Source: Chthoniobacterales bacterium
Lineage (GTDB): Bacteria > Verrucomicrobiota > Verrucomicrobiia > Chthoniobacterales > DASVRZ01
Assembly: GCA_038230215.1 (NCBI GenBank)
Contig: JBBRNR010000009.1
Location: forward strand, 30,386 to 94,385
DNA length: 64,000 nucleotides
Reading direction: 5' to 3'
Shown here: positions 8,095 to 59,880 of the stretch, piece after piece
How the letters are laid out: each line of letters opens with the position of its first letter
Position numbering within the stretch: position 1 is the stretch's first letter
Notes under the pieces: model-generated
What the model saw: the letters and a program-made list of their open reading frames with translations, nothing else
Databases searched by the model: none
What the model was told of the DNA's origin: nothing
Made by a program: the position numbers and the translations under genes

Positions 8095-8252
8095 GCCGGA
8101 GTTTGGGTGAAGTGTGCCGATGTTTAAGTCGAACAGAAATTAGTTTGGGCGGAGCCTTCAGGAGTTTGGGTGGCGTAAGAATGTTTCTGGTTTTTGCAGG
8201 TAGGAGTTTGGGTGCAGCGAGAATGTTTCTAGTTTTTGCAAGAATTTTATTT
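8095..8252. repeat. Degenerate ~21-bp-period array (AGTTTGGG core) including a 42-bp tandem duplication
   Basis: GTTT cores at 8101, 8122, 8143 and 8164, then two copies of aggagtttgggtg..agaatgtttct.gtttttgca. Confidence 0.6.
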
Positions 8253-8397
8253 AGAGCGCATTGCAAAAAGTTTGTTGTAGCGTCGAGCCTGTGGCTCGAT
8301 GGGCTTGGTGGCAGAGGGATTTCTTTCGAGCCATAGGCTCCCACTACCAACCCAGCCAGGATGCAACGGTCCATGCACGACTTATGAGACGCCCTCT
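8253..8397. mobile_element. MITE-like element carrying a GTAG-type REP doublet (left copy)
   Basis: 8274-8397 is a ~125-bp inverted copy of 9257-9382. Imperfect ends AGAGCGCATTGCAAAAAGT / GACTTATGAGACGCCCTCT; internal GTAGCGTCGAGCCTGTGGCTCGA palindrome. Confidence 0.65.
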
Positions 8398-8540
8398 GAG
8401 AGCGGCTACTTGGTCATTGGGTTGCCGTCGCACTTGCCACAGCCACGAAGGGGAAGCCACCATTCTTAAATTTTATTTTGGATAACTGTTGACCCATGTG
8501 GATGGCGGTCTCACTACTGGTTCTTAACTTATTCAAAACT

Positions 8541-9257
8541 ATGGCTAATTCTGAACAATCTTTTGCTGATCGTCTGCAACGCGGGAATTCTTTATAAGCA
8601 GCCATTGCGGCGATGACTCCTGCTTTTGTGCCGGTCGATACCACGCTGGCTCCCATCAGTTTCAAGGCATTCCTGGTTTCCGTTCTGGCAGCCAACGATC
8701 TCGTCGCCACGACCACGGCGGAGTGGAATGATCCCGTGGGAGAACGTCAGGATGCCTCCACCAGCATTCAAGCGCGGACCACGCAATCCCTCGGTTTCGT
8801 GAAGAGCAACAAGGCTTGGGATAAGAAGTTGCCCTCGATCAAACTCGCGGCCGACAAAGTGCGCGATGTGAAGGCTCCCCGACCGAAGACGCCAGTGCTG
8901 ACGTCGCCTGCAAAACCCGTGCGGAAAAAAATCGCCCGTGGCGGTGGAAGCTTCGGCGACATCGCGCTGAACTTCGGGAAATATGTGGCTGCGCTAACGC
9001 AACTGACAGGTTATGTGCCGGTCGATCCGACCATTTCGCTGGCGGCTTTGAGTGCGGCGAAGACGGAGTTTGATACTTTGAACGAGACGGTCTCCAGCAA
9101 GGAAATCGCCCTGACGAATGCGCAAGGTGATCGCAGCGATCTCTATGATGCCGAGGACGGCTTGAGTGTGAAAATGCTGGCAATCAAGGAAGCTGTAAAG
9201 GGTCAATACGGGCAGAAAAGTCCGGAGTATCTGTCGGTCAAAGGCATCAAACTTTAA
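8541..9257 (+). pseudogene. 238-codon alpha-helical hypothetical protein with an in-frame TAA at 8595-8597 (intact ORF from 8613)
   Basis: Reads MANSEQSFADRLQRGNSL*AAIAAMTP... in one frame. The C-terminal GL..K...IK..VKGQYG.KSPEY..VKGIKL pattern recalls a widespread uncharacterised family (from memory). Confidence 0.65.
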
Positions 9258-24580: not shown

Positions 24581-26617
24581 ATGGGAAACATTCGCCTCCT
24601 CCCCGAAGACGTTGCCAATCAAGTGGCGGCTGGCGAAGTCGTGGAGCGGCCCGCTTCCGTCATCAAGGAACTCGTCGAAAACAGCCTCGACGCCGGGGCG
24701 AAACGCATCGAAGTCCTCATTCGGCGCGGCGGCAACTCCCAGATCAAAGTCGTCGATGACGGCATCGGGATGGATCGCGACGACGCTCTTCTCTGTCTCG
24801 AACGCCATGCCACGAGTAAGATCCGACTCGGATCGGACCTCGCCGCCATCGCCACACTGGGGTTTCGCGGCGAGGCGCTCCCGAGCATCGCCAGCGTGTC
24901 GCGTTTTCGCCTCAGCACCCGTCCGCGCGACGCTGAGGAAGGCACAGAAATTCTCATTTCTGGAGGGAAAATCGAGGCCGTCCGTTCCAGTGGCGACGCT
25001 CCGGGGACTCAGATCGAAGTCCGCTCACTTTTTTATAATCTGCCCGCGCGTCGGAAGTTTCTCCGCACGGAAAATACCGAGGCCAGCCACATCGAGCACG
25101 CCCTGCACCTGCAAGCGATCGGGCATCCGGGTGTGGCATTCACTTATTTACGCGACGACCGGACGGTGTTCCAACTCCCCTCCTCCGCGACCCTCTCCGA
25201 ACGCCTGCGTGATCTCTATGGAAGTCCGTTCGTCGAGCAACTGGTCGAAATGCCGCCCATCGACGACGCCGGAATCCGCCCCGGAGAATCCGGGATTCGT
25301 ATTTGGGGCCTGATCGGGAAACCAGGAGTCTCGCGGTCGAATCGCAGCCAGCAGATCAGTTTCGTAAATGGACGCGCCGTGGAAAACCAGTCGATCAACC
25401 ACGGTCTGCGCGAGGGCTATCACACCGCCCTGATGCGCGGACAACACCCGATCACGTTCCTTTTTCTGGAACTGGACCCCGCGGCCGTCGATGTGAACGT
25501 CCACCCGGCGAAACGCGAAGTCCGTTTCCGCGATCCGGGCCTTATCCGCGAGAGTCTAGCCCGCGCCATTCGAACCACCCTCGACTCCACGCGCAGCGAT
25601 TGGGAAAAACAGCTGGGTGCTCCCCCGCCCGCCTTCCCCAGAGGGTCCAAAACTTCCATCGACACGGTCGGAGGCTTCTGGCGGGAGCCAAAAATAACCT
25701 CCGACGCGGTCGGCAGTGATTTGCGGGAGCCAAAAATAACCTCCGACGCGGTCGACAGTGATTTACGGGAGCCAAAAATAACCTCCGACGCGGTCGACAG
25801 TGATTTGCGGGAGCCAAAAATAACCTCCGACGCGGTCGACAGTGATTTGCGGGAGCCAAAAATAACCTCCGACACGGTCGACAGTGATTTACGGGAGCCA
25901 AAAATAACCTCCGACGCGGTCGGCGGGAGTTTTTTGTTCCCCGCCAGCAGCTCCGACGCGGTTGGGACGACTTTCCCCGTGCCCCCCGGAGCTGTCGATC
26001 ACGCCCCGGGAGGCTTTTCAGCGCCCCCGCCCTTCAAAATTCTCGGCGTCCTCGGTAAACTTTACATTCTCCTCGAATCCGCCGACGGCCTTGTACTCGT
26101 CGATCAGCACGCCGCCCACGAACGCATCCTCTTTGAGCAACTCCAGCGCAGCATGGAAACTCGCGGAGTCGCCTCCCAACGTCTCCTGCTTCCCCTCACT
26201 CTCGCCGTCGCGCCGCGCGATCACGCCTGGCTTTCGCAAAATCTGCCCACACTGCATCGCATGGGCATCGGCATCGAACCTTTTGGCGAAAGCCTCGGCG
26301 ACACCACCTACAAAATCGATGCCCTGCCCAGCTTCATCAAAACCAGCGACCCGCTCACACTCATCCGCCGCCTCATCGATGATCTCCGCTCCGTCACCAC
26401 GCAAACGAGCAGTCTGCGCCTGGGTGAGGACGTGATCGCGAAGACCGTGTGTCGTCACGCTGTGAAAGCGAACGACGTGCTGCATCGCGAAGAACAGGCG
26501 CATCTGATCCAGGATTTGCTGGCGTGCGACCTCCCCTATTGCTGTCCTCACGGCAGGCCGACTTTGATCCAATTCAGCTACGGGGACCTGGAGAAAAAAT
26601 TCGGGCGCAAGGCGTAG
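24581..26617 (+). CDS. mutL: DNA mismatch repair endonuclease MutL with repeat-expanded linker
   Basis: AAGEVVERPASVIKELVENSLDAGA, GFRGEAL, DQHAAHERI and CPHGRP. Confidence 0.97.
   Translation: MGNIRLLPEDVANQVAAGEVVERPASVIKELVENSLDAGAKRIEVLIRRGGNSQIKVVDDGIGMDRDDALLCLERHATSKIRLGSDLAAIATLGFRGEALPSIASVSRFRLSTRPRDAEEGTEILISGGKIEAVRSSGDAPGTQIEVRSLFYNLPARRKFLRTENTEASHIEHALHLQAIGHPGVAFTYLRDDRTVFQLPSSATLSERLRDLYGSPFVEQLVEMPPIDDAGIRPGESGIRIWGLIGKPGVSRSNRSQQISFVNGRAVENQSINHGLREGYHTALMRGQHPITFLFLELDPAAVDVNVHPAKREVRFRDPGLIRESLARAIRTTLDSTRSDWEKQLGAPPPAFPRGSKTSIDTVGGFWREPKITSDAVGSDLREPKITSDAVDSDLREPKITSDAVDSDLREPKITSDAVDSDLREPKITSDTVDSDLREPKITSDAVGGSFLFPASSSDAVGTTFPVPPGAVDHAPGGFSAPPPFKILGVLGKLYILLESADGLVLVDQHAAHERILFEQLQRSMETRGVASQRLLLPLTLAVAPRDHAWLSQNLPTLHRMGIGIEPFGESLGDTTYKIDALPSFIKTSDPLTLIRRLIDDLRSVTTQTSSLRLGEDVIAKTVCRHAVKANDVLHREEQAHLIQDLLACDLPYCCPHGRPTLIQFSYGDLEKKFGRKA
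25640..26017 (+). repeat. In-frame 42-bp tandem repeat (REPKITSDAVDSDL) in the mutL linker: six near-identical copies plus degenerate flanking units
   Basis: CGAC(G/A)CGGT(C/T)G cores at 25660, 25702, 25744, 25786, 25828, 25870, 25912 and 25954. Confidence 0.95.
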
Positions 26618-40605: not shown

Positions 40606-41355
40606 CTAACGCCGCGCGACGACCGGAGTCATAACCACCATTTTAGGAGTTACTTCGATGGACTTCATTTTGCCCCCGGCGCTGGCTTCTTGTTTCATAG
40701 CTTTAATGAAATCGGCGAAGATAAATTGGTCGATTTGGTCGTAGAGCAAGCCGGGTAGAGACAGGCTGCCGACGTGGCCTGCGAGCGGATGGAGATCGAG
40801 TCCGGCAGTGTTCACAGCGGGAATGTAGGTGCCACCAATATAGACCGGGAGGGTGAAGAGAAGGTATTTTTTCGTGATCCGAAACGCCTTGGATTGCAGA
40901 TGCACGAACGAGGTGTCGTAAGCCAGCACCGAGGTGGGAATGGTGGGATTTTTCGGAGCCTTGATGCGATTTTTTAGATATGCATTGAGCTGGGCCTCGC
41001 TGTAGCCGAGGCGGCGCGGAGTCTCGATGGCCTCCTGCATTTCCACGGAGAGCGACGGGGCGTCGATGATCTCGGCACCCATTTCCTTATGGTCGGCCGG
41101 AGCATCAAATGGCGGGCGAACGGCTTGAATGAGGCACGCGACGAGAAAAGCGAAGAGGACCGTCTTTAGGAAAGTTTTAATAACCCTCCCCGTGGCCGCG
41201 TTGGCCTCGGTGGAACGCCTGGGCTTGACGACTTTCTGCGGCTTTTTCGCTTCCTCTACCAGAGTCGAGCGATCCAGACGCGTGCCGCAGCTGTGGCAAT
41301 AAACGCGTTGGGTTTCATTTTCGTGCCCGCATTCCAGACATTTGAGAGTGCTCAT
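40606..41355 (-). CDS. Zinc-ribbon domain membrane protein
   Basis: CLECGHEN....YCHSCG followed by a TM helix. Confidence 0.75.
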   Translation of the reverse strand: MSTLKCLECGHENETQRVYCHSCGTRLDRSTLVEEAKKPQKVVKPRRSTEANAATGRVIKTFLKTVLFAFLVACLIQAVRPPFDAPADHKEMGAEIIDAPSLSVEMQEAIETPRRLGYSEAQLNAYLKNRIKAPKNPTIPTSVLAYDTSFVHLQSKAFRITKKYLLFTLPVYIGGTYIPAVNTAGLDLHPLAGHVGSLSLPGLLYDQIDQFIFADFIKAMKQEASAGGKMKSIEVTPKMVVMTPVVARR

Positions 41356-41358
41356 GGG

Positions 41359-41694
41359 TTAATCGGCCGCTGGTTTAGGGGTGGAGGGCTTGGGGGTTTC
41401 CGCTTTCGGAGCGGCGGGTTTGCTTTCACTGGTGGCTGGGGCCGGCGCGGCAGGACTTCCTTCGCTCTTGGCACCTTTCTTGTAATTGTCGCTGCGATAA
41501 TCGGTGATGTAGAAGCCCGATCCCTTGAAAATAAGGCCCGCACCCGTGCCGATCTGGCGTTTCACAGCTCCCTCGCCCCACTCTTCCAACTGGCATTTTT
41601 CCTTGGGGCAAGTCTTGAAGGCGTCGTCCTTCATGGATTGATAAGCGTCGAAATTTTTACCGCATTTCTCGCAGTGATACTCGTAGGTGGGCAT
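41359..41694 (-). CDS. FmdB family zinc-ribbon protein
   Basis: MPTYEYHCEKCG...CP...FKGSGFYITDY. Confidence 0.9.
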   Translation of the reverse strand: MPTYEYHCEKCGKNFDAYQSMKDDAFKTCPKEKCQLEEWGEGAVKRQIGTGAGLIFKGSGFYITDYRSDNYKKGAKSEGSPAAPAPATSESKPAAPKAETPKPSTPKPAAD

Positions 41695-41763
41695 GTTGTG
41701 GATGTTAATTACCAGCAGTGCGCTTGGAATGCAATCTTCGTGCCGCAAAGTCCACGACTTGCA

Positions 41764-42036
41764 CAATCCGTCGCTCAAAGAAACCGCCCGGTCGGCGTCA
41801 GAAAGCGCCCAGTCGGCTGTATTTACCGCCCGGTCGAGCTTGGAAACGCCTCGGTCGGCCTCATCAACAGCCCGGTCGGCCTCATCAACAGCCCGGTCGC
41901 CCCCAGAAACACGCCGGTCGGCTTCATGAATCCCTCGGTCGAACTTGGAAACACCCCGGTCGGTCTTCCAAACAGCGCGGTCGATGCCTTAAACCCTCCG
42001 GTCGATGTCATAAATAGAGCGGTAAGCGTCATATTG
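41764..42036. repeat. 13 x 21-bp degenerate tandem array (CGGTCG core, AAC/AAT end)
   Basis: Units such as cgcccggtcggcgtcagaaag, agcccggtcggcctcatcaac and accccggtcggtcttccaaac; no indels. Confidence 0.9.
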
Positions 42037-42133
42037 GCACACTTTGAGCCTTTTTTCGAAAAAGAGGCTGGTTTTCAGTCTTTGGAGGCTAATTTTTCTG
42101 GGCAACAACCCACTCCGCTGACAGCTTTCTCCC

Positions 42134-42850
42134 ATGAAAAACGAATTTAACAACCGCCTGGGCATGGCCAAAACCGTGCTCACCACCCTCGACAAACCTG
42201 CCAACTTCGCCATCTGGCAGGGAAAACCGCCCCTCGCCTTCACCAAAAAAGTCGCCCTCCTGCGCACCAAAGTCGCCCAGAACGAGACCCTCCTGAGCGA
42301 ACAAGAGGCCATCATCACCGGTTTTGCCGAGCAAAAAGACAGCAGCGAGATCGAACTCGAAGACCTCGCCCACGAGATCGGCGCCGCCCTTTCCGACTAC
42401 TACGACGACAACGACCACCAGGACCTCTCCGCCCAGGTCGATTTCTCCATCTCCGCCTGGCGCACCCTTCGCGAGGAATCCCTCGTCGCCCGCGCCCGCA
42501 TCGTCGAGAAAAACCTCGGCACCACCCTCACCGCCGACGCCGCCGGATTGGTGGATTACGACCTCGACGCCGCCGACCTCACCGCCCTCAGCGCAGCCAT
42601 CGCGAGTTACAACGATATCATCCACAGCCCGCAAGCCGCCATCGCCAACCGCAAATCCCTCACCAAAGCCGCGCGCCCCACCTTCCGCGACATGAGCAAC
42701 ATCCTCGGCAGCCTCGACAAACTCATCCTCCGCTTCCGCAAAACCGACGCCGGCCGTCAATTCGTCGATGCCTACCTCGCCTCCCGCATCGTGCGAGACC
42801 TCGGCACCAGCCCCGCCAAAGACGACCCGACAACACCGCCAACTCCATAG
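42134..42850 (+). CDS. 238-aa predicted all-alpha hypothetical protein
   Basis: Strong C-ending codon bias; amphipathic helices; C-terminal F..AY..SRIVRDLG pattern recalls an uncharacterised family. Confidence 0.85.
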   Translation: MKNEFNNRLGMAKTVLTTLDKPANFAIWQGKPPLAFTKKVALLRTKVAQNETLLSEQEAIITGFAEQKDSSEIELEDLAHEIGAALSDYYDDNDHQDLSAQVDFSISAWRTLREESLVARARIVEKNLGTTLTADAAGLVDYDLDAADLTALSAAIASYNDIIHSPQAAIANRKSLTKAARPTFRDMSNILGSLDKLILRFRKTDAGRQFVDAYLASRIVRDLGTSPAKDDPTTPPTP

Positions 42851-42860
42851 GAGTTTCAGT

Positions 42861-42932
42861 GTTATGGAGAAAACGAAGCCGCCACCCTGTAGCTCTTTGC
42901 CAAACGAAACTTTCGCCTACAACATGTTAGGC
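42861..42932 (+). other. attI-like integron recombination site
   Basis: TCGCCTACAACAT-GTTAGGC resembles the attI1 core (TCGCCCTAAAACAAA-GTTRRRY); upstream GTTATGG; directly precedes the first cassette. Confidence 0.5.
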
Positions 42933-42964
42933 GGCTCGACGAATCTCTATTCCAAAGAACCGGA

Positions 42965-43216
42965 ATGAAAGCAGCCACAATTGGAACACTCGTAGTTCGC
43001 GGTAACGCTTTGGCCATGCTTATCGTGGCCACGAGAAGTTTGTTTATTTTTGTCTATGTGCTCTATGACCCAGTTGTTGCACCACGGGCGTCAGCTCCAG
43101 GCGCCATGCGTTACACTCTCACATTAGCTTTCTTAGAGCTTGGCATTTCTCTTCTACTTTTTATTTTCAGCAGACGTATCGGCCTGTTGTTTTCACGCGG
43201 TCTCGCCGAGTCTTAG
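42965..43216 (+). CDS. Gene cassette 1: small two-TM membrane protein
   Basis: AT-richer ORF between the attI-like site and attC1. Confidence 0.7.
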   Translation: MKAATIGTLVVRGNALAMLIVATRSLFIFVYVLYDPVVAPRASAPGAMRYTLTLAFLELGISLLLFIFSRRIGLLFSRGLAES

Positions 43217-43250
43217 CACCCATGCCACATCTCACCTTCAACACACCGCC

Positions 43251-43352
43251 GCCTAACCATACTCTCAGCGAATCCTCCGGGCTCGTCACGAGCTGTGCTG
43301 TCGCACATCTCGCGCCGTTCCCTACGCGTCGCTGATCTTGAGGTCGTTAGGC
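43251..43352 (+). other. attC site 1
   Basis: GCCTAAC (R'') ... TCAGCGA / TCGCTGA arms ... GTTAGGC (R'). Confidence 0.85.
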
Positions 43353-43372
43353 GCTCTTTGACTATCGCCATT

Positions 43373-43753
43373 ATGAAAAAAACATTACAGATTGCATTGC
43401 TATTTGCTGGCTTGTTCCTTGGCTGCGGACAAATGGAAAGTCAAAACGCGAATAACGATCTGGTAGGAACGTGGACCGAAGGTAACAAAACCTTTACACT
43501 AAATCCAGATGGGACCGGAAGCTCGCATGCGACGATTAAAATTGGGGCGTTTGATACCCCAGTCTCGATTGAAGGATCGTGGATGATTGCAGACGGTTAT
43601 TTATATACTACGGTCAAGTCATCCACACTTCCGAAGCAGATTCCAGTCGGTTTTAAAGACAGAGACAAAATTGTAAGCATCGACCAGGAAACATTTCATT
43701 CGATAGACAACCAAGGCAAAAAGCACACCTATCACAGAAGAGGTTTACGATAA
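43373..43753 (+). CDS. Gene cassette 2: lipoprotein with lipocalin-like beta barrel
   Basis: MKK...FLGC lipobox, LVGTW and DGTG...GSW motifs; AT-rich. Confidence 0.75.
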   Translation: MKKTLQIALLFAGLFLGCGQMESQNANNDLVGTWTEGNKTFTLNPDGTGSSHATIKIGAFDTPVSIEGSWMIADGYLYTTVKSSTLPKQIPVGFKDRDKIVSIDQETFHSIDNQGKKHTYHRRGLR

Positions 43754-43772
43754 ATTCTACCCCCGACCAAGT

Positions 43773-43876
43773 GCCTAACGAGAACAAGATCAGCGACGCG
43801 TAGGGACGGTGCGGCTCCTGCCCAAGCAGGAGACATGACGAGCCCGGAGTGTTCGCTGATCTTGTTCTCGTTAGGC
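43773..43876. other. attC site 2 (symmetric ends, inverted interior)
   Basis: GCCTAACGAGAACAAGATCAGCGA is perfectly complementary to TCGCTGATCTTGTTCTCGTTAGGC. Confidence 0.85.
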
Positions 43877-43902
43877 GCTGAACCACACGCTTCTATATTG
43901 CT

Positions 43903-44241
43903 ATGAATTCATTGCCTATTCTTCGTTATTGGCCTTTCGTCATCGCCTTTTTCTCCTGTATCTTAGCTGGTTTGGTATTTATTCAATGGCGTCATAAAAG
44001 AGCTTCCCCAAAGAAGGTATCTTCACCAATGCAACCAACCCTATTCAGTTGTTATCTTTTTTGCCTTCTTATGCCCGCTATTTTGGGCATTCAGGTAGAT
44101 TATTACTATCGAATTGTCCAAATCTATTTGGGATTCTGGCTATGGGATGAGTTTCGTAAGCTATACCGTTTGTGGCAGGCCTCGACGCAAAACAATCCCA
44201 ATACACAGGACACTAACTTACTTCCACTCAACCGCACCTAA
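43903..44241 (+). CDS. Gene cassette 3: small membrane protein
   Basis: AT-rich ORF whose stop TAA lies within the ACCTAAC R'' box, as is typical of cassettes. Confidence 0.7.
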   Translation: MNSLPILRYWPFVIAFFSCILAGLVFIQWRHKRASPKKVSSPMQPTLFSCYLFCLLMPAILGIQVDYYYRIVQIYLGFWLWDEFRKLYRLWQASTQNNPNTQDTNLLPLNRT

Positions 44242-44323
44242 CACGTCCGTTGCCGCTTTCTGCGCTCCACCTTCGCAGCTACCTCGCCACGCTCCGCCGT
44301 CGCTGATCTTGTTCTCGTTGGGC
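44236..44323 (+). other. attC site 3 (left arm degenerate)
   Basis: ACCTAAC ... GTCGCTGATCTTGTTCTC-GTTGGGC; right arm matches attC2. Confidence 0.7.
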
Positions 44324-44346
44324 CGCTTTACACTTACTAAGCCGAG

Positions 44347-45285
44347 TTACATTGCACTCTTTGGCTCGCCGTTGAGGAAGACGTCCATCTGCTGGCCGAC
44401 ATAGACGGGGAAAGCGGGGCGCTCGAAGCGGTAAATGATTTGCAAAACGCGGGTATCGACGCGCTCGCTGCTGAGGCCGGTGAGCGATTGCTTCGGCACG
44501 ACATAGGGCTCGATGCGGACGAAATGGAGCACGACTTTTTTGTCGCGCGAACCTTTCAGAAACGCCACGGCTTCGCTGCCTGGGATGACGTGCGAGGCGT
44601 AATCTTCGTCCACGTCGGCGCGGAGTTGAAATTGATCGACGTCGCCCAGGAGCATCGCGGGCACATTGGTATTTAACTCCGCTGGCTCGCCAGCGCGGAT
44701 GTTCACCTGGAGGACGCGTCCATCGCGCGGCGCGAGGGTGGTGAGTCTTTCCAAGGTCACCTGGGCACGGCTGAGATCGGCCTCGGCCTGCTCCAACTCG
44801 GCCCGCGATTTTCCGAGGCTGGCACTGGCTTGCCGCGCGGCGAAGTCGGCCCGCGTGCGTTCGTCTTCGCTGGAGACCTGGCTCTTCGACAGCTTCTCGA
44901 TGCGCCGCAGCGTGTCGTTTTTATCGGCCAGCGCGACCTCGGCCAATGCAATGGAACTCCGCAGCACGCCGACCTGCGCCTGCTGGCTGGCGATGGCGGC
45001 CTTGGCGTCGCGGTCGTCGAGTTTGAAGAGCACGTCGCCCTTTTTCACCGTGTCGCCGACGGTCACGTTGACCTCGGAAACCAGGCCCGCGCTCGTCGGA
45101 GCGATCCGGACGTTTTCATTCACCGACTCGACGAGGCCACTCGCGCCGAGGGAATTGGCGAAGGGCGCGGACGTCGGCTGGGCCAGTGGAGCCACATGCG
45201 GATCGGGCCGGCGCAGTTTGGAGACGAGGAGAAACGCCATCACCACTCCGATGACAGCGAGATAAAACGTGGGTTTGCGGAACAT
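44347..45285 (-). CDS. Efflux membrane-fusion protein (HlyD/DevB-like)
   Basis: N-terminal anchor, lipoyl-like G.V..V.V..GD.VKKG, coiled coil and ERVDTRVLQ. Confidence 0.88.
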   Translation of the reverse strand: MFRKPTFYLAVIGVVMAFLLVSKLRRPDPHVAPLAQPTSAPFANSLGASGLVESVNENVRIAPTSAGLVSEVNVTVGDTVKKGDVLFKLDDRDAKAAIASQQAQVGVLRSSIALAEVALADKNDTLRRIEKLSKSQVSSEDERTRADFAARQASASLGKSRAELEQAEADLSRAQVTLERLTTLAPRDGRVLQVNIRAGEPAELNTNVPAMLLGDVDQFQLRADVDEDYASHVIPGSEAVAFLKGSRDKKVVLHFVRIEPYVVPKQSLTGLSSERVDTRVLQIIYRFERPAFPVYVGQQMDVFLNGEPKSAM

Positions 45286-47456: not shown

Positions 47457-47834
47457 CTTCCGGGTCGTTCTAAACTGCTTCCGGGGCACTTTGAACGCCT
47501 TCCGGGGCGCTTTGAACGCCTTCCGAGCCTCTCTGCACGTCTTCTGTATCTCCCTGTTCGTCTTCCGAGGTCGTTTTGCACTGCTTCCGGGGCGGTCTGA
47601 TCTGCTTCCGGGGCGGTCTGGACGCCTTCCGGAGCGAGTTGCAGTGCTTCCGGAGTCCGCTGAACAGCTTCCGGGGTGAGTTACAGTGCTCCCGGACTCG
47701 ATGGGAGCGCTTCCGCTCGAGTCTGATCGTCTTCCGGGGCTCGCTCTACGTCTTCCGCGACGAGTTGCACGTCTCCGCAACCTCCCTGAAGCGCTTCCGG
47801 TCGGGCGAATCAGCTTCCGGGAATCTCAATTTTT
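47457..47834. repeat. ~18 x 21-bp degenerate tandem array (CTTCCG core)
   Basis: Cores at 47457, 47478, 47499, 47520, 47541, 47562, then (+1 slip) 47584, 47605 ... 47794, and 47814. Confidence 0.9.
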
Positions 47835-47896: not shown

Positions 47897-48871
47897 ATGC
47901 CCCCTCCCCGCAAAAAGATTGCCATTAAGAAACCTGTGATGACCATTGCCGAGTTTTACGCCCGGCACGCGGAGATTCTGGGGCTGAAATTGGTCGGGCC
48001 AGCCGTCGGGTTCGATCGCGAGATTCGCGAGCCGACGATCAATCGACCCGGTCTGGCGCTCTCGGGGTTCTTTAGTTATTTCGCCGAGAAACGCATTCAG
48101 GTGATCGGGAGCGCGGAGCTGACTTATCTGAAAACGCTCGGCCCGGTGGTGATGCGGGAGCGTTTTCAGAAGATCTGTGCGCGGAATATTCCCTGTCTCG
48201 TTTTCTCACGGGGAGTGGTGATCCCGAAGCCTTTGCTGGAAGAAGCCGTCAAGCAGCAGGTGGCGGTGTTTTCGACACCGATGGTGACGATGCGGTTTAC
48301 CAACGCGGCGACGATCGCGTTGGAAATGGATTTCGCCCCGACCACGTCGGAGCATGGGAGCATGGTCGATATCATGGGGGTCGGCACACTGGTGCGCGGG
48401 GCGAGCGGCGTAGGCAAAAGCGAGTGCGTACTGGGTCTGATCGAACGCGGTTACAGTCTGGTGGCGGACGATGTGACGCGGTTTCGGGCGTTGGAGGGTC
48501 GCGATCTCGTGGGCACGGCTCCGGATTTAACCCGTTACCACATGGAAGTGCGCGGGATCGGGGTGATCAATGTGTCGTCGATCTTCGGCATCGGCAGCAT
48601 TCGGCTGGAGAAGCGACTCGATCTGGTGGTCACGCTGCAAGACTGGAATGAAATGGAGGAGGTGGATCGGATCGGACTCGACCAGCAATATTACGAGATT
48701 CTGGGCATCCATGTGCCGCACATTATCATCCCGGTCCGCATGGGCCGCGACATCGCCCGCTTGATCGAAGTGGCGGCATTGGACCAAAAACTGAAGGGTT
48801 TGGGCCAAAATAGCGCGATGGAGTTCAATAAGCGGTTGCTAAGTCTGATGGAAAATAGGACAACTCATTGA
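47897..48871 (+). CDS. hprK: HPr(Ser) kinase/phosphorylase
   Basis: INRPGLALSGF, GASGVGKSE, LVADD and MEVRGIGVI. Confidence 0.96.
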   Translation: MPPPRKKIAIKKPVMTIAEFYARHAEILGLKLVGPAVGFDREIREPTINRPGLALSGFFSYFAEKRIQVIGSAELTYLKTLGPVVMRERFQKICARNIPCLVFSRGVVIPKPLLEEAVKQQVAVFSTPMVTMRFTNAATIALEMDFAPTTSEHGSMVDIMGVGTLVRGASGVGKSECVLGLIERGYSLVADDVTRFRALEGRDLVGTAPDLTRYHMEVRGIGVINVSSIFGIGSIRLEKRLDLVVTLQDWNEMEEVDRIGLDQQYYEILGIHVPHIIIPVRMGRDIARLIEVAALDQKLKGLGQNSAMEFNKRLLSLMENRTTH

Positions 48872-49179
48872 TGGGATTGCTAAGTAGAAAGCCAACGGAC
48901 GCCAGCGCGAAAAAAATCACCAAGGAACTCACCATCGTGAACCGGCTCGGGATGCACGCGCGGCCGGCTGCGATGTTTGTGAAAATCGCGAACCGCCACA
49001 AGGCCGAGTTGTGGGTGGAAAAGGACGGCGAGCAGGTGAATGGCAAGAGCATTATGGGTTTGATGATGCTGGCGGCGGGCCAGGGTTCGAAGTTGATCGT
49101 GACGGCGGATGGCTCGGATGCGGAGAAGGCGATCGGGGAAATCGAGGATCTGATCGCTCGAAAATTCGACGAGGAATAG
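48871..49179 (+). CDS. ptsH: Phosphocarrier protein HPr
   Basis: GMHARPA (His15) and NGKSIMG (Ser46). Confidence 0.93.
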   Translation: MGLLSRKPTDASAKKITKELTIVNRLGMHARPAAMFVKIANRHKAELWVEKDGEQVNGKSIMGLMMLAAGQGSKLIVTADGSDAEKAIGEIEDLIARKFDEE

Positions 49180-49277
49180 GGGCGAGGGCGGAGTTACAGG
49201 GGTTTGATGCAAGTATTTGCGGGGAAAATCGTTCTAGGATTGATTTCGCAGAAATAGCCCGTTATGACGGGTTTGCC

Positions 49278-51038
49278 ATGAGCGAACCTGACATTTCTCA
49301 AGAAAAAATCTTTGAGGGAATTCCTGTCGCTCCAGGCATCGCGCACGGGACGTTGTACGTTCATCACTCGGATGACGAGGAGCCGCCTCACATCGAGCTG
49401 ACGGAGGCCGACATTCCCAATGAGATCCAGCGTTTTGAAGCTGCCTTGGTGGCGACCCGCGCCCAGATCATCGATATGCAGCAGCGGATCGCGGTGGCCA
49501 TTGGAGCCAAGGACGCGAGTATTTTCGACGCGCATCTGCTGGTGGTCGAGGACCGCACACTGATCGACGAGGTGTTGCGGACGCTGGAGAAAAAGAAACT
49601 CAACGTCGAGACCATCTTCCTCAGTGTGGCCAATCGTTATTCCGACACTCTGAGCAAAATCGACGACCCGTATTTGCGCGAACGCGCCTACGACATTCAC
49701 GACGTAACCCGGCGAGTAATCCGCAATCTTCTGGGGAAAATGGGTCGCCCGCTGTCCTCGGTGGATTACCCGCACATCATCGCGGCGCAAAATCTGACGC
49801 CCTCTGACACGGCACTGCTGAACAGGGAATTTGTCCTCGGCTTCGCCACCGAAGGCGGCAGCAAGACGTCCCACACCGCGATCATGGCGCGGTCGCTCAA
49901 CATTCCCGCCGTGGCTGGTCTAGAGAATTTCATGGGGCATCTGCACGAGGGTCAGACCATTCTGATCGATGGTTATCAAGGGTGCGTTTTCATCAATCCG
50001 ACCCCGGCGACGCTGGAGAAATTTGGCCGGATCGAGGACCAAAAAGAACAGGTCGAGGAACGTCTCAGCGAGTTACGCGAAACCCTTTCCACCACATTGG
50101 ATGGCCGCCGCATCGTGCTGTCGGCGAACATCGAGTTTACCAACGACCTTCCGTCCATTCATGAAAGCGGCGCAGAGGGCATCGGCCTCTATCGCACCGA
50201 GTTTCTATACCTCAACCGCACAGATTACCCGACTGAAGAAGAGCAATACGAGGTTTACCTGAAAGTCGCCCAGACGGCGCTGCCTCACTCGGTCATCATT
50301 CGCACGATGGACATCGGCGGCGACAAATTCATCGGCGACGAGCGCAAAGAGCCCAACCCGTTTCTCGGTTGCCGAGCCATACGTCTCTGCCTCGAGAACA
50401 TCCCGGTTTTCAAGACTCAGCTTCGCGCCATTCTCCGGGCCAGCGCCCTCGAAAATGTGCGGTTGATGTATCCGATGATCTCCAGCGTGGAGGAATTGCG
50501 GAAGGCGAATCAGGTTCTCGCCGAATGCAAAAACGAGCTGCGAGGCGAAGGTCAGGGCTTCGCCGAAAAAATGGAAGTCGGCGTCATGATCGAAGTCCCG
50601 AGCGCGGCTCTTTGCGCCGATTTGCTGGCCCGTGAGGTGAGTTTCTTCTCCATCGGCACCAACGATCTCATTCAATACACGGTCGCCGTCGATCGGGTAA
50701 ACGAGCAGATCGCGCACCTCTACCAACCGACGCATCCGGCGGTTTTGCGGCTGATCAAAATGGTCGTGCGCTCGGCGCACTCGGCCGGAATCTGGGTCGG
50801 CGTCTGCGGAGAAATGGCCGGTGATGTGAGTTTGACTCCCCTCTTGCTCGGCCTCGGCATTGACGAATTGAGCGCCTCGGTTCCTTCCGTCCCGCGTATC
50901 AAGCGCGCTGTGCAAACACTCAATCAAAGCGAGTGCGAACGGCTCGCCGACCATGTGCTGAACTTCGACACCGCTAAGGAAATCCAAGACGCCATCGAGG
51001 CCCACGCCCGCGAGCATTATCCGGAATTGTTAGGCTAA
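49278..51038 (+). CDS. ptsI: PEP-protein phosphotransferase (Enzyme I)
   Basis: TSHTAIMARS, GIGLYRTEF, EPNPFLG.R and FSIGTNDLIQY. Confidence 0.95.
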   Translation: MSEPDISQEKIFEGIPVAPGIAHGTLYVHHSDDEEPPHIELTEADIPNEIQRFEAALVATRAQIIDMQQRIAVAIGAKDASIFDAHLLVVEDRTLIDEVLRTLEKKKLNVETIFLSVANRYSDTLSKIDDPYLRERAYDIHDVTRRVIRNLLGKMGRPLSSVDYPHIIAAQNLTPSDTALLNREFVLGFATEGGSKTSHTAIMARSLNIPAVAGLENFMGHLHEGQTILIDGYQGCVFINPTPATLEKFGRIEDQKEQVEERLSELRETLSTTLDGRRIVLSANIEFTNDLPSIHESGAEGIGLYRTEFLYLNRTDYPTEEEQYEVYLKVAQTALPHSVIIRTMDIGGDKFIGDERKEPNPFLGCRAIRLCLENIPVFKTQLRAILRASALENVRLMYPMISSVEELRKANQVLAECKNELRGEGQGFAEKMEVGVMIEVPSAALCADLLAREVSFFSIGTNDLIQYTVAVDRVNEQIAHLYQPTHPAVLRLIKMVVRSAHSAGIWVGVCGEMAGDVSLTPLLLGLGIDELSASVPSVPRIKRAVQTLNQSECERLADHVLNFDTAKEIQDAIEAHAREHYPELLG

Positions 51039-51087: not shown

Positions 51088-51318
51088 TCGCATTCTTGTC
51101 CTGGTGTCTCAGAAACTCGCCGCGAATTCTCAGAAGCCGGGCCCGTCAACTCAGAAACTCGCCGCGACCGGACAGAAACTCGCGACGATTTGTCACAAAC
51201 TCAGTCCGACCAGCCAGATTCTTCTGAGCATTTATCGCCATTTCGCCGCGAATTATCAGAAGTTCGTGGTCATTTCTCGCCATTTCGAGACGATTTATCA
51301 GAAATTGCAGTTTTTGAG
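51088..51318. repeat. ~11 x 21-bp degenerate tandem array (TCAGAA/TCGCCA core) between convergent genes
   Basis: Cores at 51088, 51109, 51130, 51151, 51172, 51193, 51214, 51235, 51256, 51277 and 51298. Confidence 0.85.
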
Positions 51319-51320
51319 GG

Positions 51321-52292
51321 TCAAAGTCTGATCTGAGCCAGCACAAAGTCCGAAATTGCCGCCGGACTTGGGGCGTCCATTTTCTGCACCGGACTCGGTT
51401 GATAATCACCCATCCGGCAAATGCTGGCATTTTTCCAGATCCAAGCGTCGCGGTTGTAAGGACCCACCAGCAGCGGGTCGCTCCAAGTGTGGATCGAGAG
51501 GAGTCGCGACGTGATCGCCGCCGCAATATGCATGGGACCGCTGTCCACACTGACCGTAAAATCGGCGTGACGAATCAACCAGATGAGTTCGCCCAAAGTC
51601 GTTTGGCCGAGGAGATTGGTCACGTTTTCCGGCAGGTGATCCACGGTTTTTTCTCCGCCGACGAGCACGACGGCATGCGGCTGCAAGTCGCGGCAGAGGC
51701 GGACGACGTCGCTCTTTTTCATGGACTTGCCTTCGCCGCGAGAGAACGGATGGAGCAAAATAAAGCGCTCCGGCAAGTCGCCAGCGGGCCGCTTTCCCTC
51801 GGGCAAACGAAAGACCGGGGTCTCCATTTCACCCACATTCAGATGGCGGGCGAGCCGCAGGTATCGGTCCACCGCATGGAGCGACTCGGGCGGCAGGCGG
51901 ACCACTTGATGATAGAAAAACCCAGCGCCCTCCCGGGCATCGGAGAGGCCGACGATCTTTTTCGAGCCGAGAAAACGTGCAATCAAAGCCGTCCGCAGCA
52001 ATCCTTGGAAATCCAGCGCCAAGTCCGGCGTCCAGTGTCCCAGAGAACCGAGCCAGCCGGGTATGCGTAGCCAGCCGCGGAGGCCGCGAAACTGACGCCG
52101 CGGAAATTCGATGATGCGAGTCACATCGGGATGGCCCTCCAGCAGCGGGGCCCATTCGGGGTTGATCAGCCAGGCGATTTCACTTTCTGGCCAATGTGTA
52201 CGAATCGCGGCCACGGCGGGCAGGGTGTGCACCACGTCTCCGAGGGACGACGGTTTAAGAATCAGAATCCGCTGCGGATCTGGAGCAGCCAT
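51321..52292 (-). CDS. Glycosyltransferase family 9 (LPS heptosyltransferase-like)
   Basis: ILILKPSSLGDVVH, DFQGLLR and DSGPMHIAAA. Confidence 0.9.
   Translation of the reverse strand: MAAPDPQRILILKPSSLGDVVHTLPAVAAIRTHWPESEIAWLINPEWAPLLEGHPDVTRIIEFPRRQFRGLRGWLRIPGWLGSLGHWTPDLALDFQGLLRTALIARFLGSKKIVGLSDAREGAGFFYHQVVRLPPESLHAVDRYLRLARHLNVGEMETPVFRLPEGKRPAGDLPERFILLHPFSRGEGKSMKKSDVVRLCRDLQPHAVVLVGGEKTVDHLPENVTNLLGQTTLGELIWLIRHADFTVSVDSGPMHIAAAITSRLLSIHTWSDPLLVGPYNRDAWIWKNASICRMGDYQPSPVQKMDAPSPAAISDFVLAQIRL

Positions 52293-57001: not shown

Positions 57002-59880
<2,879 letters not shown>

Follow-up and report, generated by a model that had tools for sequence, protein, structure and literature searches.

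Two adjoining features stand out in a 64,000-nucleotide stretch of DNA from a Chthoniobacterales bacterium (hereafter the window): a non-coding tandem array of 13 units of 21 base pairs (bp) at positions 41764 to 42036 of the plus strand, and a gene on the same strand (42134 to 42850) that codes for a 238-amino-acid (aa) all-α protein with a disordered Pro/Thr-rich tail, a member of a large and unnamed family that we call F1. Together, array and gene look like an undescribed DNA-recognition module; full-text literature searches, with supplements outside their scope, returned no description of such arrays or of the protein family. The array is tied to the helical-protein family by a conserved position and by a conserved, subfamily-specific motif, and the module is accessory, being gained and lost between close relatives. 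From these patterns we infer that the protein binds the array, that its target is DNA and not RNA, and what effect such binding would have; the chances that the units are cognate phased DNA-binding sites for the encoded protein are, in our estimation, even.

Tandem Repeats Finder (TRF) splits the array into two rows (41779-41963 and 41970-42023); cut in steps of 21 from position 41764, it keeps perfect register through 13 consecutive units with no indel. The hexamer CGGTCG occupies unit positions 5-10, exactly in ten of the 13 units and with a one-base change in two more (CCGTCG and CAGTCG), and the thirteenth and last unit reads CGGTAAG in its place. Eleven units end in AAC or AAT, A/G-AAC being the closing block of most units, and a second conserved block, GAAAC/AAAC, lies about one helical turn from CGGTCG within the unit. 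About half of the unit positions are degenerate, those outside the core differing freely between units. Self-identity is 0.62 at lags of 21, 42 and 63 and about 0.25 at other lags; over the exact span of the array it is 0.627 at lag 21, and the best lag of any of 2000 shuffles does not exceed 0.394. We delimit the array as a non-coding plus-strand feature on the basis of this periodicity, of the shuffles and of a motif and orientation that are shared with other genomes. The initial annotation had described just such an array, with 13 units of exactly 21 bp free of indels and a nearly fixed CGGTCG core and AAC/AAT end, and the register and lag analysis confirms it. It had also set the array apart from clustered regularly interspaced short palindromic repeats (CRISPR), and rightly so: the units are degenerate and abut without spacers, and no Cas match was found for the 238-aa protein (Pfam, PADLOC) or for its Pfam-scanned neighbors.

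The association of array and gene recurs in other loci of the same genome and in other genomes. In the window's own genome (G000) the protein has seven paralogs, and six of the eight F1 genes have a large TRF array within 450 bp upstream, while one shows weak periodicity and one none. A further 38 loci from other genomes encode relatives at 34-68% identity; their host labels are mostly Verrucomicrobiales, with one each from Pirellulaceae, Abditibacteriaceae, Chthoniobacterales and Proteobacteria. Haloferula sargassicola (locus L040) is a cultured carrier of a homolog. Upstream 21-bp periodicity in the homologs had been set as a test beforehand, a locus being called periodic when the strongest lag in the 500 bp upstream was 21, 42 or 63 and scored 0.27 or higher. 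Among the 37 loci with enough upstream DNA, 32 were periodic, compared with only two of 334 control blocks drawn from the same loci. No other gene is conserved beside the module in the 38 loci, suggesting that it is self-contained; within the window, the neighbors of the 238-aa gene are a Zn-ribbon gene and small membrane open reading frames (ORFs). One of the paralogs (G000:C1:379940-380653) carries an internal TGA and is probably a pseudogene, and it still stands behind a 420-bp array region.

Genes of other sequence families stand in the same position. Further ORFs of 226-297 aa without a Pfam match follow arrays and fall into several sequence families, one of which is the NCBIfam 'PQLLE family'. 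Profile-profile comparisons among these array-linked families of about 240 aa, based on shallow alignments, link F0 with F3 (94%), F1 (80%) and F4 (60%), all remaining pairs scoring below 5%. It is F4 (locus L014) that matches the PQLLE model NF052641, at 104.7 bits against a cut-off of 80 bits; the 238-aa protein has no NCBIfam match, and we rejected this assignment for it.

The repeat motif travels with the protein subfamily. A stricter detector delimited arrays in 30 of the 37 foreign loci, and 19 of these 30 carry GGTCG followed 6-8 nucleotides (nt) further on by CAAA or CAAC, always in the same orientation to the gene and over a range of protein identity from 35 to 68%. The other foreign arrays have CTTCG(G)...GCAAC (four), CTTAAG (one), CCGGTAAG (three), which is the variant that closes the window's array, or other sequences (three). 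Between motif groups the DNA from the array to the start codon is unalignable, and five own-genome paralogs at 22-31% identity come with five different repeat units. A syntenic module shared by G000 and the congener G001 has 13 and about 12 units, respectively; its two blocks, AGCAATC and CGTTAC, are kept at 10.5 bp from center to center while the variable positions drift. When conservation is profiled over 50 arrays, a weak second peak appears at a shift of 10-11. Together, the upstream periodicity and the motif that accompanies the protein subfamily support the earlier proposal of an array-plus-protein module with selection on spacing.

The motif of the window's array also occurs away from the gene. 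On contig C1, between convergent genes and with no helical gene nearby, an orphan array (59099-59310, minus strand) is built from the unit of the window's array and closed by the element, CGGTAAGnGnCATnnTGGCACACTT, that ends the window's array at 42020-42044 (plus strand); this element also terminates the arrays of the two closest homolog loci. Arrays with three CGGTCG hexamers at 21-bp spacing number four in G000, two in G003 and zero in G001, G002, G004 and G005, and a control search with the reversed pattern gave zero. Among six congeneric genomes, a close homolog of the 238-aa gene is likewise present in G000 and G003 only, G005 having a 147-bp fragment; as this co-occurrence covers six related genomes, it is to be taken as a hint and not as a test. 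We also considered the TGGCAC of the terminal element as a possible sigma-54 site and rejected it, the GG-N10-GC spacing being present in two of four copies only and absent from more distant loci. A different conserved element, TCAGTCACAA-N5-CTCTCCCCCAA, lies directly after the array and about 45-60 nt before the start codon in seven loci of Luteolibacter and Akkermansiaceae type (L030, L033, L037, L041, L043, L044 and L064), where it may be a promoter or leader element.

The start codon of the 238-aa gene lies 98 bp past the last unit and its frame is open, in agreement with the predicted all-α ORF about 100 bp downstream of the array. An AlphaFold2 model from a 13-row alignment is all-helical, with a predicted local distance difference test score (pLDDT) of 86.7, a 59-residue helix and the disordered Pro/Thr tail. 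Foldseek found nothing for this model at E<=0.001 in PDB or BFVD, its best match being the McpS sensor domain at a template modeling (TM) score of 0.44. Nor did the protein match Pfam, NCBIfam, PHROGs or PADLOC, and a sequence-profile search of PDB gave nothing below an E-value of 0.25. The family is nevertheless large: a profile search of 1.84 billion metagenome cluster representatives retrieved 6600 at E<=0.001, 4662 of them at E<=1e-10. Among 50 F1 members that were scanned, none has a Pfam match over the helical domain. By Evolutionary Scale Modeling (ESM) features the nearest clusters are from Bacteroidota (0.97), with a weak lead to DUF6261 (0.88); this lead to Pfam PF19775 was dropped as hmmscan was negative for both the 238-aa protein and the 50 family members. 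We also discarded the idea that the C-terminal R..GH motif is a HEPN-like Rx4-6H, since the 238-aa protein lacks the His. A homodimer prediction for residues 1-224 scored 0.00 and gave no verdict.

The accessory nature of the module is seen directly in comparisons with congeners. At the corresponding site, G001 and G005 lack a segment of 2594 bp (41747-44340) whose left edge is within 20 bp of where the array starts. The flanks of the segment abut in these two genomes, being 14 bp apart and 82-84% identical in G001 and about 27 bp apart and about 70% identical in G005; the segment is therefore an indel. Neither a target-site duplication nor a terminal inverted repeat is visible at its junctions. 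Copies of F1 in the six congeners number 8, 4, 0, 11, 0 and one fragment; 23 genomes from other families of the order yielded no copy, and three of 300 sampled genomes of the phylum have a match. The locus itself lies among housekeeping genes on a 136-kb contig; beyond this assembly it was found only in DNA contigs of one sediment-metagenome study, with no RNA run listed for it.

Arrays with this period form a class of their own in the genome. On the 3.0-Mb assembly TRF reported 438 rows, of which 132 have period 21, 47 period 42 and 22 period 63. The rows with periods of 21n bp merge into 122 arrays, 69 of which are at least 90 bp long (the large arrays); four arrays besides that at 41764 lie within the window. 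Across 21,832 windows, each of 273 bp, self-identity of 0.5 or more is seen in 64 at lag 21, in 80 at lag 42 and in 44 at lag 63, compared with 0-2 windows each at lags 18, 19, 20, 22, 23, 24, 30 and 33. By blastn-short, 33 of the 69 large arrays fall into 15 small clusters and the other 36 have no similar partner; a search for a core common to all 69 was negative, the most frequent 5-mer being CGACC/GGTCG, in nine of them. Orphan arrays precede ordinary genes such as a batA-like gene, a CHASE2 cyclase gene, lnt, hrpB, an MBOAT gene and ispG, and the translation of some arrays yields 7- or 14-residue linkers in real proteins. This exposes a genome-wide rule, namely that periods of 21, 42 or 63 bp account for almost all long tandem arrays, and we know of no bacterial mechanism that explains it.

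One array of this class (G000:C1:147939-148143) is translated as (E)VNPSSS repeats within a conserved membrane-protein gene; its unit is similar to those of the arrays that precede two genes for helical proteins of another family, and the number of units is smaller in a close relative. An identical 21-bp array is found at two contig ends (G000:C5:1-217 and G000:C8:145900-146035), suggesting that such arrays probably break the assembly.

In the reading that we favor, array and gene would form one cognate, self-contained module, with the 21-bp units, each of two turns of B-DNA, serving as phased recognition sites on double-stranded DNA and the blocks CGGTCG and GAAAC placed about one turn apart. 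The 238-aa helical protein would read the units head to tail, most likely lining up cooperatively along one helical face, and such a row next to the gene's own promoter could result in autoregulation or the assembly of a nucleoprotein complex. The same protein would probably also recognize the orphan arrays that carry this motif at other genomic sites. Selection on phase is suggested by the lack of indels in 13 units whose non-core positions vary, together with the dominance of lags 21, 42 and 63 across the genome. A role at the level of DNA is favored over one at the level of RNA: the base composition of the arrays is not biased toward either strand with respect to the gene (GC skew is negative in 14 of 23 gene-array pairs, p=0.40), and an RNA role would be more likely to leave a bias.

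Several points weigh against this reading. On the side of the protein, no DNA-binding fold or motif was recognized in searches of Pfam, PDB and BFVD. F1 proteins are acidic, with a median isoelectric point (pI) of 5.6 (n=156), and the 238-aa protein has a pI of 5.2 and a net charge of -6. Moreover, in some homologs the Pro/Thr linker is followed by CarboxypepD_reg (C-terminal in three of the 50 scanned members) or by fn3 (in another), domains more typical of surface or phage proteins. On the side of the arrays, about 21 of the 69 large ones lie upstream of a gene of a ~240-aa family as we delimited these families, a count that is not independent, since the families were partly chosen for having an array. 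The co-occurrence of gene and array among kin is not independent evidence either, as a gene and its upstream DNA are inherited together. Of 56 intergenic arrays, 26 lie between tandem, 17 between divergent and 13 between convergent genes (1597, 492 and 495 genome-wide, by our own crude gene calls), and several others lie inside coding sequence; a promoter role cannot explain the convergent and coding cases. One coding case is in MutL (ORF 24581-26617 of the window), where a 42-bp unit repeated 6.4 times at 25656-25924 encodes, in frame, 14-residue repeats in the disordered linker between the DNA_mis_repair and MutL_C domains. G001 has an unrelated, equally young 42-bp array at the same MutL site, and G004, G005 and G006 have none there. 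Two different young arrays at one site suggest that repeats of 21n bp arise by a process that operates whether or not a binder exists. This process may be separate from the upkeep of the old, degenerate, motif-bearing arrays at the helical genes, or may be caused by it.

One alternative places the function in RNA: the array would be transcribed and its units would bind the protein as RNA, either as the antitoxin of a type III (ToxIN-like) system or as an autoregulatory leader, the orphans then being antitoxin-only loci. At the window locus the layout does recall ToxIN, as a terminator-like hairpin of ten pairs with a loop of three, followed by GGTTTTCAG with its T tract (42047-42076, plus strand), stands between array and start codon. 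The fixed orientation of the array relative to the gene and the patchy, accessory distribution of the family would fit as well, and a common 21-nt footprint could account for the shared period if all the families were homologous. Set against these, a similar hairpin feature is seen only in the closest homologs, and a terminator between array and gene as a general feature is rejected, hairpins of this type occurring on the sense strand in eight of the 37 homolog loci and on the antisense strand in 13. The protein is all-α with no ToxN/AbiQ-type or other PADLOC match, the array units are degenerate at about half of their positions in contrast to the near-identical ToxI repeats, and array composition lacks strand bias. 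Rfam gave no family match over 41000-44500, with only two sub-threshold microRNA-model hits at a palindrome (43763-43890). Further, the period equals two turns of B-DNA in every family and the conserved blocks lie about 10.5 bp apart. On balance, we regard an RNA-level function as unlikely; for the transcribed array cut into short RNAs that the initial annotation had proposed, the results speak neither for nor against.

Another possibility is that the arrays are mainly products of a lineage-specific mutational process that makes and expands 21n-bp tandem duplications wherever they are tolerated, with no specific reader, and that the helical genes are merely frequent neighbors in variable regions. 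Such a process would account for the mostly unrelated sequences of the 69 or so large arrays (122 with the small ones), for their presence in convergent intergenic DNA and in coding linkers, where they are always in frame because 21 = 3 x 7, and for the unrelated young arrays in the MutL linkers of two congeners. It would also suit the orphan array between hrpB and lnt, which is absent from G001, where the short spacer of the empty site holds a single unit-like 10-mer. It leaves unexplained the position-specific conservation within units, the fact that a single bipartite motif has stayed with a single protein subfamily in different genera at 35-68% protein identity, the excess of periodic upstream regions over control blocks in the homolog loci, and the confinement of phased CGGTCG arrays to the congeners that carry the gene. 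We see a small chance that it is the main explanation.

A third view would make the module a minimal mobile or selfish element, with the array as the cis site at one end, the protein as a mobility or maintenance factor and the orphans as non-autonomous copies or relics. In its favor, the array begins within 20 bp of the left junction of the 2.6-kb insertion, and the orphan partner has both the unit and the terminal element. Likewise, the two closest homolog modules (65-68% aa identity) sit between genes whose G000 counterparts, 80-89% identical, are on other contigs; the synteny of the module shared by G000 and G001 breaks at the stop codon; and copy number varies from 0 to 11 among congeners. 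We nonetheless consider it improbable, given that there are no near-identical copies of the module within the genome (the paralogs being 22-31% identical), no target-site duplication or terminal inverted repeat at the junctions, and no recombinase-like domain or catalytic signature. Finally, the suggestion in the initial annotation that the array might encode a heptad-repeat peptide (frame xPVGxxN), or be the eroded coding sequence of one, can be rejected with near certainty for the window's array: frame 41293-42150 is indeed open through the entire array, and other 21n-bp arrays of the genome are translated linkers, but a repeat unit free of stops is open in every copy and this openness is trivial, the frame runs antisense through the Zn-ribbon gene and is not in phase with the 238-aa gene where it ends, and since CGGTCG straddles codons and the would-be Val codon is fixed as GTC in 12 of 13 units while neighboring codons vary at all three positions, the conservation is at the nucleotide level.

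Known systems with comparable layouts differ from the module in several respects. In plasmid centromeres (parC/ParR of R1 and of pSK41, sopC/SopB of F), phased direct repeats lie directly upstream of the gene of the protein that reads them, each system with its own motif, and double as the promoter region. The module resembles them in having phased direct repeats immediately upstream of a gene and a motif that differs by system. However, unlike partition systems of types I-III, it has no partner ParA, ParM or TubZ nucleoside triphosphatase (no neighbor being conserved in the 38 loci); its protein is a large all-α bundle with no ribbon-helix-helix (RHH), helix-turn-helix or ParB-type match in Pfam or PDB; and dozens of arrays occur here on a chromosome, some of them inside genes. 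Iterons with their Rep initiators (R6K, pPS10, RK2) and the heptad operators of the omega repressor are repeats of 17-22 bp or 7 bp that are read head to tail, with autoregulation. They share with the module tandem direct repeats of similar size next to one protein gene; in contrast to them, it has no match to a winged-helix Rep or an RHH fold and no plasmid context, and arrays of many unrelated motifs keep strictly to a period of 21n. In type III toxin-antitoxin systems (ToxIN, CptIN, TenpIN) a repeat array is followed by a terminator and then by the toxin gene. The order of repeats, terminator-like hairpin and gene at the window locus is alike, as is the accessory, patchy and fast-evolving character; the differences are the lack of a ToxN/AbiQ, CptN or TenpN match (Pfam, PADLOC, NCBIfam), the 21-nt degenerate units and a hairpin that is not general. 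KfrA-type plasmid autoregulators, mostly α-helical proteins that bind repeats in their own promoter, gave no sequence or fold match in general searches and were not compared further. BrickBuilt, a minisatellite/MITE (miniature inverted-repeat transposable element) of Porphyromonas gingivalis, is one 23-nt sequence family in 19 copies with leader and tail inverted-repeat ends (PMC4596501). It also forms spacer-less intergenic arrays of units of about 20 nt at many sites of one genome, and differs from the present arrays in that these have a period of 21n, nearly always a sequence of their own, a tie to a protein family and no inverted ends at the junctions.

If the protein reads the array, it would represent a widespread and so far unnamed DNA-recognition fold, with F1 in Verrucomicrobiota and feature-level look-alikes in Bacteroidota. 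As motif specificity differs by subfamily, a recognition rule could be derived from natural protein-motif pairs. More speculatively, and with a low likelihood in our view, the all-α superfamily as a whole might be a new class of sequence-specific readers of double-stranded DNA with subfamily-specific bipartite motifs, which seed or expand their own 21n-bp arrays around the chromosome and even into coding linkers such as that of MutL. This would amount to a self-propagating element of array and protein, possibly with a decodable recognition rule. The arrays also bear on the turnover of intergenic DNA and protein linkers between close relatives, and they are relevant for genome annotation because they are regularly mis-called as N-terminal extensions or ORFs.

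The same layout had been proposed for a second locus of the window (8095-9257), and here the correspondence holds in part. A 42-bp repeat does precede a 238-codon frame of a helical family (8541-9257, plus strand); the repeat, at 8099-8240 on the plus strand, is short and irregular with about three to four copies, the gene is interrupted, and no relationship between the two proteins can be detected. TRF reports just 1.9 copies of the 42-bp unit (8160-8240), and AGTTTGGG recurs by eye at 8101, 8144, 8164 and 8206. An in-frame TAA stands at codon 19 (8595-8597), leaving 8613-9257 (214 aa) as the longest open ORF. Homologs of this protein have 218-284 aa, and the nine closest are intact with 235-254 aa and cover 97-100% of the read-through frame, so that the gene in the window is an interrupted one. 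The model of one homolog is all-helical (pLDDT 88.5) with two similar halves, and this model matched no PDB fold at E<=0.001. The second-locus protein has no significant similarity to the 238-aa protein by BLASTP or by profile-profile comparison (probability 4%), and relatives of its family were found in none of 300 other sampled genomes of the phylum. The resemblance of the two loci is one of layout, not of demonstrated kinship.

The setting of the module in the window is a divergent intergenic region, the array lying between a Zn_ribbon_8 (FmdB-like) gene on the minus strand and the ORF 42134-42850. Beyond array and gene, the accessory segment contains small membrane-protein or lipoprotein ORFs and one inverted-repeat pair of about 100 bp (43245-43354 and 43774-43859), which flanks a small lipoprotein-like ORF with a signal peptide from about 43373. 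Weak Rfam hits to mir-1253 fall on one arm of this pair. The repeat recurs often and in both orientations in G001 (contigs C7, C13, C21 and C10), and hence appears MITE-like.

Two of the other arrays of the window lie further downstream. A short 21-bp array of 4.6 units (51107-51202) lies between a ptsI-like gene (49011-51038) and a heptosyltransferase gene (51321-52292, minus strand); as these genes are convergent, no promoter is expected there. The gene hprK (47897-48871) and a MacB/FtsX-like permease gene on the minus strand are separated by a 21/42-bp array with the unit CTTCCGGGGCGCTCTGAACGC (47457-47696), and a similar array is found outside the window at G000:C9:106441-106700.

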